Shown here: piece by piece, positions 25,933 to 63,175 of the stretch | How positions within the stretch are numbered: position 1 is the first letter of the stretch | Layout of the letters: the number at the start of each line of letters is the position of its first letter | Assembly: GCA_963819055.1 (NCBI GenBank) | Contig: CAWFUT010000020.1 | Coordinates: forward strand, 7,561 to 71,560 | DNA: 64,000 nt | Direction: 5' to 3' | DNA from: an uncultured Acidobacteriaceae bacterium | Lineage (GTDB): Bacteria; Acidobacteriota; Terriglobia; Terriglobales; Acidobacteriaceae | Notes under the pieces: generated by a model | Databases searched by the model: none | The model's input: only the letters and a program-made list of their open reading frames with translations | What the model was told of the DNA's origin: nothing | Made by a program: the position numbers and the translations under genes

Positions 25933-26118
25933 AGCTTGTTCGGCAGGTTTTCGTGTAAGCGGCCGCTGCGCGTTTCAGATCTGAGCCAGGAGCGCCGACT
26001 GCCGATTATCGCTGAACGTCGCCGCTTAGGAGCAGTTCATAACATCCTGTCCGGGAGCCTCGCTGAACCCCGCATCGCGTGGCATAGACTGTGTCAGGCC
26101 GGACGGCGACGAGAGGAA

Positions 26119-26658
26119 ATGGCGATGAAACAAATTCTGATCATGCTGATCATATCTTTCACCTGTTTTGCTTATGCCCAGGACAAGAATTCTCCCAGGA
26201 CGCTTAAGGGCGTTTTAGTGGAACAGTTGAAAACTACTCACACTCAGAAGGAATGGTTCGCTTCGGCTGACGATGCGCTGAAAGGCCTCAGCGCTGAGCA
26301 GGCGAACTGGACCGACGGCAAAGGCAATCACTCGATCGCGCAGGAGACGACTCACCTTCTCTATTGGGACAAGTACGAGCTGGACAAGTTCCAGGGCAAA
26401 ACTCCGGCGAGGTACAGCGGCAACAATGACGACACCTTTAGCAAGGTGGACGATAAGCAGTGGGCAGCGACGGTGAAGCAGCTCGACGAGGTCATGACGC
26501 AATGGGAGCAGGCGGTGCAATCGGCCGACGACAAGAAAGTCGCGGAATGGGCTTCCACCATCGCTCACATAGGAACCCACAACGCCTACCACATCGGCCA
26601 GATCGTCTACATACGCAAGTTGCAGGGCTCGTGGAATCCGAGCTTGGGCGTGAGGTGA
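26119..26658 (+). CDS. DinB-family protein with signal peptide
   Basis: The start was moved to the ATG at 26119 (gagagga upstream). The signal peptide is MAMKQILIMLIISFTCFAYA. DinB His motifs are present: THLLYWD and HIGTHNAYHIGQIVYIRK. Confidence 0.75.
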   Translation: MAMKQILIMLIISFTCFAYAQDKNSPRTLKGVLVEQLKTTHTQKEWFASADDALKGLSAEQANWTDGKGNHSIAQETTHLLYWDKYELDKFQGKTPARYSGNNDDTFSKVDDKQWAATVKQLDEVMTQWEQAVQSADDKKVAEWASTIAHIGTHNAYHIGQIVYIRKLQGSWNPSLGVR

Positions 26659-26728: not shown

Positions 26729-28516
<1,788 letters not shown>

Positions 28517-28519
28517 GTT

Positions 28520-28600
28520 TTGAAGGGGCACAGCTTTAGCTGTGCCGTTACAACTGCCAAATTCTTGTCATTCCGAGCCGACCTCACGCACTCGTTGTAC
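28520..28600. repeat. Composite hairpin-repeat cluster between tetR and fadD
   Basis: ttgaaggggcacagctttagctgtgccgttac followed by cttgtcattccgagccgacctcacg. These are the same two families seen at 18150-18245. Confidence 0.5.
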
Positions 28601-28645: not shown

Positions 28646-29317
28646 TTATGCGGTGCGCATCCCGTTCAGAAAAATATCCACTACCATGTCCGCCACATTG
28701 GAGAGCTGGTATTCGTGGTCGCTCAGCACCCACGAGGTCACCATCTCGTCGAGCGCTCCGAAGAAGCAGTTCGCAGCGAACTTGTCAGACATGCCAGGAC
28801 GAAAGATGCCGCTCGCCTGCCCTTCCGTGATGGCCTCGCGCACCAGGCCGAGATACTCGATCATGTGATGGTGCGAAAACTCGGCCAGAAAACGCGTGCT
28901 CTGACGCAGCTCCATCTGGAAGACGACCGCCATGCTGCGGTTCGAGCCGAGCGCGTCAAGATGCAGAAACGCCAGCCGCCGCAGCCGCTCTGCCGGGTCG
29001 GCTAGCTTCTTGAGCTCAGTCCGCGCCAGGCTCATAAAGGCATCGAAGGCGGTGTTAATGGCGGTCATCAGGATCTCTTCCTTGCTCTTGAAGTAGAGAT
29101 AGACGGTGCCATCGGCGACGTCGGCGCGATCGGCAATATCGGCCACGCGCGAGCTGAAGAACCCTTTTTCTGCAAAGACGGCGACTGCGGCATCCAGGAT
29201 GCGCTGGTACTTGTCGTTACTTCTACTGGCGGATGGGAGCACTGGATTGTCTGGACCCGTAAGCGAGTTGGGTTCGAATTTCGTCACAGCCGGTTGACTT
29301 CCCAGGCGAGCGGACAA
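28646..29317 (-). CDS. TetR/AcrR-family transcriptional regulator (start codon uncertain; the tracked start is TTG)
   Basis: The HTH region is RILDAAVAVFAEKGFFSSRVADIADRADVADGTVYLYFKSKEEIL. The gene lies immediately upstream of fadD and is co-directional with it. Confidence 0.85.
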   Translation of the reverse strand: MSARLGSQPAVTKFEPNSLTGPDNPVLPSASRSNDKYQRILDAAVAVFAEKGFFSSRVADIADRADVADGTVYLYFKSKEEILMTAINTAFDAFMSLARTELKKLADPAERLRRLAFLHLDALGSNRSMAVVFQMELRQSTRFLAEFSHHHMIEYLGLVREAITEGQASGIFRPGMSDKFAANCFFGALDEMVTSWVLSDHEYQLSNVADMVVDIFLNGMRTA

Positions 29318-29361: not shown

Positions 29362-29377
29362 GAATGAGTACTCATTC
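29362..29377. promoter_or_regulatory. Perfect 16-bp palindrome, candidate TetR operator
   Basis: GAATGAGTACTCATTC is its own reverse complement. It lies 45 nt upstream of the tetR start, in the divergent region shared with the peroxiredoxin operon. Confidence 0.45.
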
Positions 29378-29567
29378 ACTTTAACGCCCAATGAAAGGTT
29401 CCGCAATTGGGCATTAGCAGTGGATTCCAAAATGGAATGGCGTCCCTACACAGCGGTACTCCGCCCTTGACAACCAGTCCGCTGGCGGAGGCGACGAGTT
29501 GATGGGACAATGCTATTACTCTGCCCATCGCAGTCGATGAAGCGACGAATCGTAGAGGAGAGAATCG

Positions 29568-30113
29568 ATGAAGAAGCTGCTTGTGGCATTGCTGTTGTCC
29601 GGCTTTCTGTTGCCGGCGAGTTATGCCGCGGACAAATCCGATGCCATCCCGGCGCCGAAGATCAAGGTGGGCGACGTGGCTCCTGACTTCACGCTGGAAG
29701 ATCAGAACGGCAAGAAGGTTTCGCTGCACGAATTCCGCGGCAAGAAGAATGTCGCGCTGGCGTTTTACATTTTCGCTTTCACCGGTGGTTGAGCCAAGCA
29801 GATGCAGGCTTTCCAGGCGAATCTCGCCAAGCTGGAAGCCGCAGACACCCAGGTTCTGGGTGTAAGTATGGATTCTCCCTTCTCGAATCGGGCTTGGGCC
29901 CAACAACTCGGAGTTACCTTCCCGCTGCTCAGCGATTGGGGCGGCGATACTACCAGGGAATACGGACTCTACGATCCCGAGTATAAAGCAGCGCGCCGGG
30001 TCAACTACCTGATCGACAAGAATGGCAAGGTCATCGAGATGCAGTTGGATGATGCCGCCATCGATCCGACCAAGGTGGTCGACGCCTGCCAGGCCAAGAA
30101 ACTGAACCGGTAA
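29568..30113 (+). CDS. Secreted AhpE-like 1-Cys peroxiredoxin with an in-frame TGA (29790-29792) at the peroxidatic-Cys position; candidate selenoprotein
   Basis: ORFs 29568..29792 and 29802..30113 are in the same frame and are separated only by a TGA. The joined sequence reads ..NVALAFYIFAFTGG[TGA]AKQMQAFQANL..VLGVSMDSPFSNRAWAQQLGVTFPLLSD... This matches the Prx core FxxAFTGxC, with the stop exactly where the catalytic Cys belongs. GAGGAG precedes the ATG. The signal peptide is MKKLLVALLLSGFLLPASYA. Confidence 0.65.
29807..29840 (+). promoter_or_regulatory. Hairpin 15 nt downstream of the in-frame UGA (possible bacterial SECIS)
   Basis: GGCTT(T)CCAG pairs with CTGGAAGCC. An inner GCGA/TCGC stem tops it, with the apex about 30 nt after the UGA. 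I cannot confirm canonical apical-loop features by eye. Confidence 0.35.
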
Positions 30114-30227: not shown

Positions 30228-30989
30228 GTGAAACGTTGGCCGCTGTTGCTAATGACGATGTTCGCGAGTGGTGTGGTGCTTCAGGCGTTCGCGCAGGGCA
30301 TGGCAGCCTCACCGCCGGCTGCTAACCCGCCGCTGGGCAAGATCACGGCAGCCTCCGTGTGGCAGCCACCCCAGGACTTCCTGACCAAAGCTCACAGGGC
30401 TTGCGACACTTCGATGAGTGCAGTCAGCTTTCCCGAATGCTTCATGAACCAGATCTCCGTGGCGGGCGCGCCTCCTGAAGCCGTGGCCTTTACTCGCACG
30501 CTCTACGGGCAGGGCGACGGACAGGTCGGCATCATGAATGCGTTCAAGAGCTTCGGTCCGGTCGACGTCGCTCAAGTGGTTTATCCCTTACGGGCGAACG
30601 ACAACTACGGTCTGCTGCTGGTGAATGGCGATCCGAAGCTGTTGGACGTCGACGATCTGAAGAAGTTGGACCGCACCGCCATGGAACAGGACAGCTGGTA
30701 CCAGGGGTTGAAGAAGAAGTACCCGCAGGTTGACATCTGGCCGGGCGATCGCAGTGCCGGCATTCCCTGGCCTCGCGTTCAGCAATTGCCCGACGGCGGT
30801 ATCGAGTTCATCGTCCCCTATCCGCTCATCAATGGATGCCACGCATGTGAGCATGTAGGGACGGCGCGATTTGGCTGGGAGTTCGATGCCGGAGGAAAGT
30901 TCCTGAGAACGGTTTTCGTGCCTTCGGCGCTGCCGCCCAAGCGGAGGCCAGCCTCGGCCCCACCCGATGCTGCTCCTCCGCAACAATAA
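30228..30989 (+). CDS. Secreted four-Cys (CxxC) protein of unknown function, paralog A
   Basis: GTG start with AGGAG upstream. The signal peptide is MKRWPLLLMTMFASGVVLQAFA. By eye it is roughly 40% identical to the next gene. The conserved features are AxxACD..(F)xxC, GPVD(V/I)A.V.YPLR, LLLVNG, WPGDR and NGCxxCxH. Confidence 0.6.
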   Translation: MKRWPLLLMTMFASGVVLQAFAQGMAASPPAANPPLGKITAASVWQPPQDFLTKAHRACDTSMSAVSFPECFMNQISVAGAPPEAVAFTRTLYGQGDGQVGIMNAFKSFGPVDVAQVVYPLRANDNYGLLLVNGDPKLLDVDDLKKLDRTAMEQDSWYQGLKKKYPQVDIWPGDRSAGIPWPRVQQLPDGGIEFIVPYPLINGCHACEHVGTARFGWEFDAGGKFLRTVFVPSALPPKRRPASAPPDAAPPQQ

Positions 30990-31104: not shown

Positions 31105-31803
31105 ATGTGTAAGCCACTCGCGCTCTTCGCGTTTGTTGCACTCGCCACGCTTGCGTTTGGGCAAGCCGCTCCGCCACCGATCGATGCTTCCGCTGTGTGG
31201 CAGCCTGGTGGCGACTTTCTTACCACCGCCCGCGCGGCCTGCGACAAAGTAACACCGTCCAGCAAGTTCTCCGATTGCGTCATCAACCAAATGTCCAAGG
31301 CGGGCGCCTCCGCCGATGCCGTGAACTTTACCCGCGAGCTCTATAAGCAGACCGGCGGGGAAGTCGGCATCATGGGGAGTTTCCAGAAAGTCGGCCCGGT
31401 GGATATCGCCTGGGTGCAATACCCGCTGCGCTCAAGCAGTGGGCTGCTGCTGGTCAATGGCAAACCCCGAATCATCAACGCTGAAGACCTGAAGCTGCTG
31501 GACGAAAAGGATATGCAACAGAGTTTCCAGTACCAGGACCTGCAGAGCCAGTTCCCGAGAGTTGGCGTGTGGCCTGGTGATCGCGATGGCAAGACCTGGC
31601 CGAACTCGCAGACCGGCAACAAAGGCGGCCTGCAGTTCATCATCGGGTATCCGTTACGCAACGGATGCGCCACCTGTGCTCATGCGGGATTCGTGCTGTT
31701 TACCTGGAACTTCAATCCCAGCGGAAAGTTTACGGGCACGAGCTTTATGGGGATGACGCCGGCTCCGATTTCGCAATCAGGCCAGAGCACGCCGCAGCAG
31801 TAG
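31105..31803 (+). CDS. Secreted four-Cys (CxxC) protein of unknown function, paralog B
   Basis: The start was moved to the ATG at 31105 (aggggg upstream). The signal peptide is MCKPLALFAFVALATLAFG. It is collinear with paralog A, including NGCATCAH against NGCHACEH, and both end in PQQ. Confidence 0.6.
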   Translation: MCKPLALFAFVALATLAFGQAAPPPIDASAVWQPGGDFLTTARAACDKVTPSSKFSDCVINQMSKAGASADAVNFTRELYKQTGGEVGIMGSFQKVGPVDIAWVQYPLRSSSGLLLVNGKPRIINAEDLKLLDEKDMQQSFQYQDLQSQFPRVGVWPGDRDGKTWPNSQTGNKGGLQFIIGYPLRNGCATCAHAGFVLFTWNFNPSGKFTGTSFMGMTPAPISQSGQSTPQQ

Positions 31804-33868: not shown

Positions 33869-33989
33869 ACTATCTTCGATTATAGCAACCGTTCTGGACT
33901 CTCTTCGCGGTTCCGCTTCACAACACATCGTGCGCTGAGATTGTCGGCTCGTCGCCCAACTGCATCCTCCACCGTATAATGAGAAGTTC

Positions 33990-34517
33990 ATGAACGGACT
34001 CGTTTACGCCGTGGTTGCGTATGTCCGCAGCCCGGTGGGGATCTTCGTTGAGGAACTGCGCCGCGAAATGCATCCGGCACACACTCATGCCGATGCCCAC
34101 ATCACCATCCTGCCTCCGCGTCCGCTCAGCGGCAGCGAAGAGGAAGCTTTGCAACTGCTGACGGAGGTCTGCCGCACTTCGACTCCGTTCGAAGTGGTTA
34201 TGGGCGACGTGGAAACGTTCATCCCGGTCACCCCCACGGTCTTCCTGCGCGTGGCTCGCGGCGCTTACCGTATGCGGGAGTTGCATGACCGGCTGAACCG
34301 CGGCGGTCTTAAATTCAACGAGCCTTGGCCCTATATGCCCCACCTCACCATCGTCAAAATGGACAGGGTGGAAGAGGCCAGCAAAGTAGTCGAGATAGCG
34401 CGTCAGCGTTGGCGCGAATGTAAAGACACCCGTTCCGTTCGCATTGAATCGTTGACTCTGGTGAAGGGGACTGGGGAACGCTGGGTCGACTTGGCGAAAG
34501 CGTCCCTGGGCGGGTAG
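33990..34517 (+). CDS. 2H phosphoesterase / 2'-5' RNA ligase (LigT-like) family protein
   Basis: Two HxT/S motifs are present at the spacing typical of the 2H superfamily: HITILPP and HLTIVK. Confidence 0.75.
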   Translation: MNGLVYAVVAYVRSPVGIFVEELRREMHPAHTHADAHITILPPRPLSGSEEEALQLLTEVCRTSTPFEVVMGDVETFIPVTPTVFLRVARGAYRMRELHDRLNRGGLKFNEPWPYMPHLTIVKMDRVEEASKVVEIARQRWRECKDTRSVRIESLTLVKGTGERWVDLAKASLGG

Positions 34518-34679
34518 TTCGGCTGGAGAACGCTCGTCCGCCTGAAGATCACCTCGCCTGAACCATGACGCTGGCTGTGACGGCACACCTGAAGGTGTCC
34601 TGCAAGACTGATCCCCTCGAGCCTTCCCCCAGCCTCTCAAGCCTGCCGTTTTTAAGGCGGCTCGCCGGTGAGTTTTCCT

Positions 34680-35033
34680 TCACGCCGCTTTCAGCGTGGA
34701 GACGATGGTGTCCAGCAGTTGCTGCGGTTCTCCTTTGCGGACGAAGCCGGATACATAGGGGGCGATGTCTTCCGGCATCCCGTACAGGTCTGAGAGCACC
34801 AGAATCGGAGTGTTGGGGTAGGTACTCCGCAAGCGCTTGGCGACGTCGACGGCCGACAGACCGGCGCCCAGGCGATAATCCAGCACGGCAAGGTCGATAC
34901 TCTCTGCCTCGGGCAAATCGACCGCTTCTCTCTGCACTAGGGCAGGAACCGAGCGAAAGCCGCCGCGCTCGACGACCCACGAATAAATCTTCAGATGAGA
35001 CGGATCGTCGTCCACGATTAAGACGCTCTGCAC
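34680..35033 (-). CDS. Single-domain CheY-like response regulator
   Basis: VLIVDDD, the phospho-acceptor region DLAVLDYRL, ILVLSD and VRKGE (conserved Lys). Confidence 0.85.
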   Translation of the reverse strand: MQSVLIVDDDPSHLKIYSWVVERGGFRSVPALVQREAVDLPEAESIDLAVLDYRLGAGLSAVDVAKRLRSTYPNTPILVLSDLYGMPEDIAPYVSGFVRKGEPQQLLDTIVSTLKAA

Positions 35034-35314
35034 GTATTCACCTTTCTGGGCAGACGCAAGTATATCGGGAGAAGTAGCCGCGCGCGAATGATCCGCAATT
35101 ATTCCCGTTGTCGCAACCTTGCAGGGGCTGCGTCAGGTATTGTCTTCGATCGCGCACCCGAATTTCCGCAACTCCTCGCGTGCTCCCAAGCAACCTGAGT
35201 TGCCGTTCTCGCCATCTAACTCCAGCTTGGGTTGTAACTCTCGGCAAAAGCAGTGGCTTAGGCAAGTCGAAGTCCGGCGCGCAAGCGCCCAGTTGACCCC
35301 GTTTCTAGCCGCTC

Positions 35315-61578: not shown

Positions 61579-61778
61579 CCCACTCAAGACCAGAAGAAGG
61601 TCTTGAATGGGGCACCCGGGTTTTCGATTCCGTGGAGTAAAGGTAGGCCCGGTAAAGGGACGGATGCCCCGTTCAAGCAAAGCTTGAGCGGGTCTTTTTT
61701 TGTAAGGGTAGAGATCTTGGACTTGGGAAGAAAAACCCCCACTCAACGACAAAAGAGGTCGTTGAATGGGGCACCCGG
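61579..61778. repeat. Two direct 41-bp hairpin elements flanking a terminator
   Basis: cccactcaagaccagaagaaggtcttgaatggggcacccgg (61579-61619) and cccactcaacgacaaaagaggtcgttgaatggggcacccgg (61738-61778). The atggggcaccc core recurs at 18121 and, inverted, at 48378. Confidence 0.7.
61669..61701 (+). terminator. Rho-independent terminator downstream of the island gene
   Basis: CCGTTCAAGC-aaa-GCTTGAGCGG forms a 10-bp stem with one G-U pair. It is followed by GTCTTTTTTT. Confidence 0.65.
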
Positions 61779-61873
61779 CACCAGTTTTCTGTAACAACCC
61801 GTGCGATCTGGGAATTGCTTTTGTATTGCGCGCCGAGTTCCGCGAGACAGGTCAAGTCCAAAACTACTCTCCA

Positions 61874-62044
61874 TCAACTCAGTCCGTGTTCGGTACAAAA
61901 TATCTTCGCTTCGTCACTTCGCTTATCGTCGCCAGACCCGATGTTGTCGAAATCGATGATTTCAACTTCGTAACCGATCGGTACAGAGTCTCCTACTATA
62001 TAGGCGGTTCCACCACTTACCGTGACAAAAATCTTATTTGACAT
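61874..62044 (-). CDS. Possible 56-aa protein in low-GC DNA (below the ORF-track length cutoff)
   Basis: GAGGG lies 4 nt upstream of the ATG at 62044. The translation is MSNKIFVTVSGGTAYIVGDSVPIGYEVEIIDFDNIGSGDDKRSDEAKIFCTEHGLS, with the TGA at 61874-61876. The competing plus-strand ORF starts inside a repeat element. Confidence 0.35.
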   Translation of the reverse strand: MSNKIFVTVSGGTAYIVGDSVPIGYEVEIIDFDNIGSGDDKRSDEAKIFCTEHGLS

Positions 62045-62147
62045 TCAACCCTCGCGTTCGTACAGGTTGGAGATCGACAAAACGCACTTGGGCTATACCC
62101 GGCCCCGTGTTCCCTGGCCTTATGTCTGCCGGAGCCTACTAGACGAG

Positions 62148-62640
62148 ACACCAGTCCAAAGGACGGAACAATCGTAGCCCAGCACGCCAGTGCTGGGAAC
62201 GTGGTCATAAAATCTTCCGAGTCCCTTCAGGGACGACACAAAATGCCTGCCGTCCTATCGGACTCCGGGGATGGTTATGATCCGAATCCCAGCACTCACG
62301 TGCTGGGCTACGATTGTGACGCCCTTCGGGCTTCGACCCTGGTCCCCAGCACTCACGTGCTGGGCTACGATTGTGACGCCCTTCGGGCTTCGACCCTGGG
62401 TCCCCAGCACTCACGTGCTGGGCTACGATTGTGACGCCCTTCGGGCTTCGACCCCGATCCTCGTCCTGGTCCCCAGCACTCACGTGCTGGGCTACGATTG
62501 TGACGCCCTTCGGGCTCAAACCCGATCCCCGTCCTGGTCCCCAGCACTCACGTGCTGGGCTACGATTGTGGTGCCCTTCGGGCTCAAACCCGGTTCCAGC
62601 AAAACGATTGTGGCGCCCGTTGGGCTCGGCGTTGGCCTGC
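62148..62640. repeat. REP array left of the RAYT gene: one inverted unit, five direct units and a degenerate sixth
   Basis: The unit is cccagcactcacgtgctgggctacgattgtgacgcccttcgggc, with hairpin CCCAGCAC-tcac-GTGCTGGG. Units start at 62288, 62345, 62403, 62472 and 62540, a period of 57-69 bp. An inverted copy lies at 62148-62197. A second hairpin, GTCCCTtcaGGGAC, is at 62221-62234. Confidence 0.85.
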
Positions 62641-62737
62641 GAATGCGGTGACTGGTGCGCTCAATCGCCATGCTCAATCACGCGAGCCTGTGATGTCCAC
62701 CACGGCCTGAAATCGCCATTCTCGCGATACTCAACTC

Positions 62738-63175
62738 ATGGCCCACACCTATAGCTCAATCTTGTTTCACGTAGTCTTCGCGACAAAAGAACGCCGGGCG
62801 CTGATCCATGAGCCTGCGAAACTTTGGGCTTATGTCGCGGGTACCGCTCGCAAGCTTGGGTATGAACCTCTGGGGGTCGGCGGAACCGAGAATCATCTTC
62901 ATCTGTTGTTGCGATTGCCGGCGCACATCGCTGTTGCCGAAGCGGCGCAGAAGCTGAAAGCGAATTCTTCGCGGTGGCTCAAGGAAAATGGATCGTGGCT
63001 CGGATGGCAGCAAGGCTACGGAGCGTTTTCGGTCAGCCTATCTAATGTGGATACAGTGCGACGATACATTCAGAACCAGCCCGAGCATCATCGGCGGCAT
63101 AGTTTCGAAGAGGAGTTTATCGCGTTGTTGGTGCGATCAGGTATTACGTTTGAGAAGGACGAGGTCTTCGAGTAG
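62738..63175 (+). CDS. IS200/IS605-family Y1 (HUH) transposase homolog; REP-associated tyrosine transposase (RAYT)
   Basis: MAHTYSSILFHVVFATKERR.., the HUH motif ENHLHLLL, and the Tyr motif RRYIQNQPEHH. The protein is 145 aa and is flanked on both sides by the same REP sequence. Confidence 0.85.
   Translation: MAHTYSSILFHVVFATKERRALIHEPAKLWAYVAGTARKLGYEPLGVGGTENHLHLLLRLPAHIAVAEAAQKLKANSSRWLKENGSWLGWQQGYGAFSVSLSNVDTVRRYIQNQPEHHRRHSFEEEFIALLVRSGITFEKDEVFE

Follow-up and report, generated by a model that had tools for sequence, protein, structure and literature searches.

Known selenocysteine peroxiredoxins and the locus

Peroxiredoxins (Prx) with a T/SxxU motif, in which U stands for selenocysteine (Sec), are an established family and among the commoner bacterial selenoproteins (Zhang et al. 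2006, PMC1794560). Described members include a Bcp-type protein (WP_011365628.1; PMC12013277 supplement) and PrxU, the Eubacterium acidaminophilum type (NCBIfam NF040737). They are thioredoxin-fold AhpC/TSA peroxidases with Sec in a TxxU motif, they coexist with homologues that have cysteine (Cys) instead, and a hairpin follows their UGA inside the coding region. Here we analyze a locus that resembles them in all these respects, located in a 64-kb stretch of DNA from an uncultured Acidobacteriaceae bacterium (contig CAWFUT010000020.1), which we call the window. Positions 29568-30113 of the window very probably constitute a single gene, whose product would be an exported, AhpE-like peroxiredoxin with a selenocysteine, inserted at the in-frame UGA at 29790-29792, as its peroxidatic residue.

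The family of the window protein differs from the known Sec peroxiredoxins in being AhpE-like, in its predicted signal peptide, in its single C-terminal Cys and in its occurrence, which is mainly in soil Acidobacteriota. The product scores 69.8 bits against the PrxU model, whose equivalog cut-off is 270, and 77.6 bits against the Bcp model, whose cut-off is 140. No peroxiredoxin in the selenoprotein sequence sets of PMC1794560 and PMC12013277 carries the AFTGGU motif, and a literature search on AhpE and selenocysteine found no description of the family. The best-matching protein of known structure is Mycobacterium tuberculosis AhpE (Rv2238c; PDB 1XXU, 1XVW, 4X0X, 5ID2), which shares the AFTGxC motif and aligns in its active-site Thr and Arg; some orthologues of the window protein have been named 'mycoredoxin-dependent peroxiredoxin' by JGI. 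Yet AhpE is a cytosolic 1-Cys enzyme with a peroxidatic Cys and no resolving Cys, whereas the window protein has a Sec codon, a predicted signal peptide and a C-terminal Cys. The family is an unannotated addition to the known Sec peroxiredoxins and not a new principle.

A single reading frame across the UGA

The features of the gene, all on the + strand, are as follows.

29556..29560, +: Shine-Dalgarno sequence AGGAG, 7 nt 5' of the ATG at 29568 (read from the sequence)
29568..30113, +: whole putative selenoprotein gene, 181 codons with UGA-Sec as codon 75, then TAA (translation, Pfam, PDB, AF2/Foldseek)
29568..29627, +: predicted Sec-type signal peptide MKKLLVALLLSGFLLPASYA, likely cleaved after SYA (sequence features only)
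29781..29783, +: Thr72 codon of the TxxU active-site motif (T-G-G-U), aligned with AhpE Thr42
29790..29792, +: UGA, read as selenocysteine U75, the putative peroxidatic residue; Cys in relatives, aligned with AhpE Cys45
29994..29999, +: Arg143 and Arg144 codons, which include the conserved peroxiredoxin active-site Arg; invariant in alignments A1 and A4
30087..30089, +: Cys174 codon, candidate resolving Cys and sole Cys of the mature protein

The earlier note on this DNA had joined two open reading frames (ORFs) and placed the stop between them at the catalytic Cys of an AhpE-like peroxiredoxin, and both points hold upon re-reading. The ORF at 29568..29792 (74 codons, from MKKLLVALLLSGFLLPASYA to FYIFAFTGG) and the ORF at 29802..30113 (103 codons) lie in the same frame, and the TGA at 29790-29792 is the only stop between them, so that the read-through product contains FYIFAFTGG-[UGA]-AKQMQAF. 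When Cys is put in the place of U, the 181-residue product matches the Pfam family AhpC-TSA (PF00578) across the stop, covering positions 1-123 of the 124 in the profile with residues 34-157 (E-value 7e-36; 123.3 bits against a cut-off of 26). The best match in a phmmer search of the PDB is M. tuberculosis AhpE (E-value 7.6e-26, ~33% identity), in which the stop is aligned to Cys45 (FFPLAFTGIC).

The fold agrees with this assignment. In the following, L-numbers denote loci of related genomes and P-numbers gene calls of homologous proteins. An AlphaFold (AF2) model of a Cys homologue, P0003, has a pLDDT of 89.3, and its top matches in Foldseek are archaeal Bcp4, AhpE and Bcp1, with TM-scores, normalised to the target, of 0.82-0.91 overall and 0.86-0.88 for AhpE. 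AhpE-like, rather than member of the AhpE subfamily, is probably the most suitable label, judged from sequence and modelled fold: the best PDB match is AhpE, but the model also matches Bcp1 and Bcp4, and the C-terminal Cys is invariant.

Of the peroxiredoxin motif PxxxTxxC and the active-site Arg, Thr72, U75 (at the Cys position) and Arg143/144 are present and aligned with AhpE; the position of Thr72 is occupied by Thr or Ser throughout the homologues, and Arg143/144 match the segment ANRGTF of AhpE, to which R116 belongs. The Pro of the motif, universal in PxxxTxxC, is replaced: the corresponding codon 68 (29769-29771) encodes Ile in the window (FYIFAFTGGU), and most Sec forms have Ile or Val there. 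A few Bryobacterales-like Sec forms (L073, L075, L076) and two Cys forms (L071, P0027) keep the Pro.

The earlier note had also cautioned that the window contains further frame disruptions. This was not borne out: a scan of the window for stops that interrupt an otherwise long open frame gave no other convincing case. The in-frame TGA candidates at 33918-35132, 61766-62434 and 62504-63175 were rejected as ordinary gene ends or non-coding sequence. Within the first of these lies a response-regulator receiver-domain ORF (34683-35132, - strand), which ends with a TGA at 34680-34682; it was discarded as a second selenoprotein because the long open in-frame segment past its TGA looks non-coding.

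In public data, we found more than 100 distinct 'peroxiredoxins' of 103 residues that are 82-94% identical to the second ORF and all start just past the stop. One public metagenome call of 171 residues, P0005, reads FYIFAFTGG-ADTQVLGVS and thus lacks the Sec codon and the 17 codons after it, including the first of the hairpins described below; the gap may be genuine, or it may have arisen from a gene model that jumps over the stop.

Conservation of the UGA and Cys homologues

We scanned one genome per prokaryotic species for orthologues and obtained 80 loci, nearly all from metagenome-assembled genomes of Acidobacteriota (Acidobacteriaceae, other Terriglobales, Pyrinomonadaceae, Bryobacterales, Acidoferrales), along with two bins labelled Verrucomicrobiota. 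Seventy-nine loci, each a species-level genome, contain 82 Sec-type copies, since three of these loci have a tandem pair; together with the window, this gives 83 copies. These span 45-85% protein identity and all of them have TGA at this codon; TAA or TAG occurs in none. Both members of the tandem pairs (L055, at 2511 and 3139; L064, at 2491 and 3148; L067, at 641 and 1308) keep the TGA and the hairpin of their group (group B, see below). The universal TGA must therefore be the ancestral state and not a private lesion, which makes it moot whether the reads confirm the A at 29792, a check that the earlier note had proposed. The two Verrucomicrobiota-labelled copies, L006 (Candidatus Udaeobacter) and L025 (Verrucomicrobiia), are of the group-A type that includes the window and are 60-65% identical to its protein; they reflect either horizontal transfer or binning contamination.

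Relatives with Cys at this position exist as well. The codon is TGC in L071 (Bryobacterales), L088 and L090-L092 and TGT in L089, and metagenomic Cys homologues have TGC (P0003, P0009, P0017) or TGT (P0027). The alternation between Sec and Cys sought among the orthologues is thus present, and, at the level of sequence, the family has the Sec/Cys pair at a predicted redox-active site by which selenoproteins are classically recognised.

Two further properties are common to all 83 copies. The N-terminus is hydrophobic and resembles a signal peptide, and the part past the UGA contains a single Cys, which lies ~6-16 residues before the C-terminal end. The N-terminus of the window copy combines an n-region containing KK with a hydrophobic core and a c-region of the small-x-small type. 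The entire product of this copy has no Cys other than Cys174, so that the mature protein would contain one Sec and one Cys.

Purifying selection on the part of the gene past the stop is strong, not relaxed. Between the window and its closest relative, L001, the ratio of nonsynonymous to synonymous substitution rates (dN/dS) is 0.03 upstream and 0.10 downstream of the stop, at a dS of ~0.8. For codons +26 to +55, the median downstream dN/dS over 691 pairs of group-A sequences is likewise 0.10. We used these group-A and nearest-relative values, as the dN/dS of 0.69 computed from all pairs over both groups is misleading, resulting from indels and saturation.

Two RNA structures downstream of the UGA

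Folding all 83 sequences jointly with RNAalifold failed to yield a consensus, as the set is a mixture of two distinct structures. This was resolved by splitting the sequences into group A (45 sequences, including the window) and group B (37 aligned sequences, of the 'YQADIAKFE' type). In the window, the structure of group A consists of two hairpins, which together span 13-73 nt past the UGA.

29803..29842, +: hairpin H1, core UUCCAG (29811-29816) pairing with CUGGAA (29832-29837); candidate selenocysteine insertion sequence (SECIS) or part of one
29845..29863, +: hairpin H2, ACACCCAG-GUU-CUGGGUGU, 8-bp stem with a G-U-N loop region; possible SelB-binding hairpin

The earlier note had proposed a hairpin at 29807-29840. 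This hairpin, our H1, exists and is conserved, but the note had missed the second conserved hairpin, H2. Folded as 29804-29843, H1 has an energy of -18.9 kcal/mol (z-score -2.6), and one of 200 shuffled sequences was as good; H2, whose form in group A is (AC)ACCCAG-GUN-CUGGGU(GU), has -11.4 kcal/mol (z-score -2.7). Across the 45 sequences of group A, 95.9% of the cells in H1 and 99.6% of those in H2 are paired. H1 encloses a poorly conserved interior of 15 nt.

In group A, support for the hairpins comes from synonymous-site conservation, not from covariation. The stem codons are nearly fixed: TTC (38/39), CAG (45/45), CTG (42/43) and GAA (42/42) in H1, and ACC (42/45), CAG (42/45), CTG (41/44) and GGT (45/45) in H2. 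Divided by the expected value, the observed heterozygosity of these codons is 0-0.29, whereas the median for the remaining 57 codons is 0.93 (Mann-Whitney p = 4e-6). The Gly codon of H2, for example, is invariably GGT against an expected heterozygosity of 0.66. At the same codons, this one included, group B shows free synonymous variation.

Group B has a different hairpin of 7 bp, GCG-UAUC-[AGKCU]-GAUA-(U)-CGC, which occupies positions 18-37 when counting starts at the T of TGA. Here, 91% of the cells are paired and 29 cells are double changes, values that none of 500 shuffled alignments reached and that collapse in slid controls. Pair 21:36 is G-C in 20 sequences, C-G in 7 and A-U in 6, and pair 24:32 is U-A in 28 and C-G in 9; the loop codons CAG, GCT and GAT show zero synonymous variation. 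Conserved RNA structure thus follows the UGA in both groups, with covariation in group B and with pairing and synonymous constraint in group A.

Sister lineages with Sec and Cys allow a further comparison. In the Sec forms L094, L095 (WAFSPT-U) and L096 (FAFTGG-U), both hairpins are intact, whereas among their Cys sisters H2 is lost in L090-L092 and both H1 and H2 are weakened in L089. The group-B hairpin is lost in the Cys form L071. Both hairpins are still present in the Cys form L088, which suggests a recent conversion from Sec to Cys. With few Cys lineages, we regard this comparison of sequences as supportive, not decisive.

Which hairpin may act as the SECIS

Like the SECIS of E. coli fdhF and those captured by bSECISearch, the structures described here are stem-loops in the coding sequence shortly past the UGA. 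In the bSECISearch model, the apical loop lies 16-37 nt past the UGA. The canonical combination of a G or GU in the apical loop with this distance is found in group B, whose AGKCU loop lies 22-26 nt past the UGA. In the clade of the window, the two properties are divided between the hairpins: H1 is in the canonical position, with a variable 15-nt apex that has no invariant G, and H2 has a GGU-type loop that lies outside this range, at ~60 nt.

For comparison, we used a gene for a formate dehydrogenase alpha subunit, fdhA, in L093 (9440-12676), whose product is 77% identical to FdhA from the acidobacterium Occallatibacter riparius. It is located on a 3.76-Mb contig, is split at an in-frame TGA into 182 and 891 residues, and has a classical SECIS with a GGUCU loop 19-23 nt past the UGA; its neighbourhood contains no sel genes. 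Both the group-B AGKCU loop and the loop region of H2 (G-G-U-N-C) resemble this GGUCU loop, and presumably also the GGUC loop of the E. coli fdhF SECIS. Public data contain many Sec-type FdhA fragments of ~890 residues, which form roughly 100 clusters among the top matches.

A tentative and on balance doubtful explanation for group A is a bipartite signal, in which H1 would fold the spacer away and H2, 55-73 nt past the UGA, would be brought into the ribosomal register. Leaving the length of H1 out of the count places the loop of H2 at ~20-31 nt past the UGA. The same data fit equally a model in which H1 is the SECIS and H2 an accessory element. Were the bipartite reading true, bacterial SECIS could act at a distance via a structured spacer, a class that SECIS-based searches would miss.

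Proposed mechanism

In the most likely mechanism, SelB with Sec-tRNA(Sec) would be recruited by the downstream RNA, through H1, H2 or both, and U75 would be inserted during translation. The Sec pathway would then export the protein to the periplasm, where the signal peptide would be cleaved after Ala20. The selenolate of U75 could attack a hydroperoxide, aided by Thr72 and Arg143/144, yielding a selenenic acid, which Cys174 may resolve to a selenenylsulfide. A periplasmic thiol reductant would finally reduce the selenenylsulfide.

Points against and alternative explanations

Several observations weigh against the reading of the gene as a functional selenoprotein gene. None of selA, selB, selD and tRNA-Sec was found in the 64-kb window or in the fetched related loci: tblastn searches with Treponema SelD and a partial Solibacter SelA had no match in the window or any of the loci, ARAGORN detected no tRNA-Sec in any locus, and the tRNA and Rfam search of the window gave only tRNA-Pro and tRNA-His. 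There was also no contig on which the peroxiredoxin is linked to Sec machinery or to a second selenoprotein gene; a query with the C-terminal part of the Sec-FdhA of O. riparius retrieved many Sec-type FdhA fragments, none sharing a contig with the peroxiredoxin. As regards the RNA, no G is conserved at the apex of H1, and H2 lies beyond the canonical range of bacterial SECIS. Covariation in group A is almost nil, because the stems hardly vary: H1 has no compensatory change and H2 has one (G-C to A-U, in L005 and L006). H1 is kept in some Cys forms (L088, L090), and part of its conservation could reflect constraint on amino acids and codons. No Rfam family matches the region, and a permissive scan of 29740-29900 gave only a chance match to Entero_CRE. 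Finally, export of the protein, resolution by Cys174 and the nature of both reductant and substrate are inferred.

The alternative that survives best, though improbable, is that the family consists of true selenoproteins but that Sec decoding has been lost in this genome, leaving the window copy as a non-functional relic. The lack of Sec machinery genes in the available 64 kb would fit, and loss of the Sec trait is frequent in bacteria (PMC1794560). On the other hand, a relic would be expected to gain further lesions or to convert to Cys, whereas in the window copy the frames on both sides of the UGA, H1, H2, the Shine-Dalgarno sequence and the signal peptide are all intact and the low dN/dS against L001 extends over both halves. 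Acidobacteria are documented users of Sec, an example being Solibacter usitatus (PMC1794560). The Sec proteins of O. riparius comprise FdhA, an AhpD-like and a deiodinase-like protein, with no Sec peroxiredoxin among them (PMC12013277).

Less probable still is that the UGA is read as a standard amino acid, by reassignment to Trp or Gly or by leaky read-through, or that the two halves are separate polypeptides that assemble. A few 'full-length' gene calls of homologues do show W at this site, and in the clade of the window an ATG follows 9 nt past the stop. However, TGA ends ~13 of the 49 long ORFs of the window, including the Pfam-confirmed DinB gene at 25936-26658, and as an ordinary terminator elsewhere in the window it excludes a reassigned genetic code. 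The W is an artefact of gene calling with genetic code 4: the genes so called also contain TGA, and some of the calls read through the terminal TGA as well, the code-4 translations of P0004 and P0008 continuing past their true terminal TGA into junk. Moreover, Trp or Gly at the peroxidatic position, where homologues have Cys, would abolish catalysis. As for two polypeptides, the position of the window's Met is mostly Leu in group B, so that there is no conserved restart codon, and the second half has no signal peptide.

A recent nonsense mutation (TGY to TGA) or base-call error, which would make the gene of this genome a pseudogene, needs only one base change from the TGC or TGT of the family's Cys forms, but is effectively refuted by the ancestral TGA in all copies over 45-85% protein identity, by a downstream dN/dS of ~0.1 at a dS of ~0.8-1.1 and by the intact hairpins of the window. 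Private nonsense mutation, sequencing error and shared pseudogene are all untenable.

Genomic context and regulation

Upstream of the selenoprotein gene, the window contains the following features.

26729..28531, -: AMP-binding (acyl-CoA-synthetase-like) gene, downstream of tetR (Pfam AMP-binding, E-value 2e-77)
28646..29317, -: TetR-family regulator with a YsiA-like C-terminal domain, divergent from the peroxiredoxin gene (Pfam TetR_N and TetR_C_4)
29362..29377: perfect 16-bp palindrome GAATGAGT/ACTCATTC in the intergenic region between tetR and the peroxiredoxin gene (inverted-repeat search)

In the related loci, the AMP-binding gene neighbours the peroxiredoxin gene in 45 and the TetR gene in 13. 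The palindrome has the form GAATGA-N4-TCATTC, which occurs once in the window. It recurs between the two genes, at the corresponding site, wherever TetR is kept, in L001 (2721-2736), L002 (2798-2813), L003 (2822-2837), L004 (2778-2793) and L081-L087 (~2541-2556), and it resembles the box of Bacillus FadR (YsiA). Judging from its sequence and position, the palindrome is likely the operator of the divergent FadR/YsiA-like TetR repressor, with GAATGAGTACTCATTC as the predicted operator. A scan for promoter and terminator consensus sequences found nothing.

AhpE prefers fatty-acid hydroperoxides. Because this preference coincides here with a FadR/YsiA-like TetR regulator, an acyl-CoA-synthetase-like neighbour and a conserved palindrome, the context suggests that the peroxiredoxin is co-regulated with fatty-acid metabolism and that its substrates are fatty-acid or lipid hydroperoxides.

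Directly downstream of the peroxiredoxin gene, the window has two tandem paralogues (30228-30989 and 31111-31803, both + strand) with 46% identity to each other, hydrophobic N-termini and the motif NGCxxCxH near the C-terminus, which match no Pfam family; none of the related loci has them at the corresponding place. In nine related loci (L009-L011, L015, L016, L021, L026 and L040 among them), a tRNA-Met gene lies ~50-330 nt past the stop of the peroxiredoxin gene, which is not the case in the window. Towards the far end of the window, an ORF at 62738-63175 (+ strand), beginning MAHTYSSILFHVVFATKERR, presumably resembles a REP-associated or IS200-like tyrosine transposase. Just upstream of it, at ~62250-62560, are repeated peptide-coding segments (STHVLGYDC.ALRA).

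Implications

Gene callers routinely split this gene into products of ~75 and ~103 residues or apply the wrong genetic code to it, which affects many assemblies of soil Acidobacteriota. Recognising it as one gene, which no NCBIfam model captures, corrects a systematic annotation error. The natural Sec/Cys sister pairs, together with two SECIS solutions for one codon, provide a system for defining the minimal needs of a bacterial SECIS.

With this family, the bacterial selenoproteome would gain an exported, AhpE-like peroxiredoxin with one Sec and one Cys. Its conserved association with genes for a FadR/YsiA-like repressor and an acyl-CoA-synthetase-like protein leads to a testable substrate hypothesis, namely fatty-acid hydroperoxides. 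The use of selenium would be widespread in a dominant soil phylum, which bears on the ecology of selenium in soil and on the defence of the cell envelope against oxidative stress.

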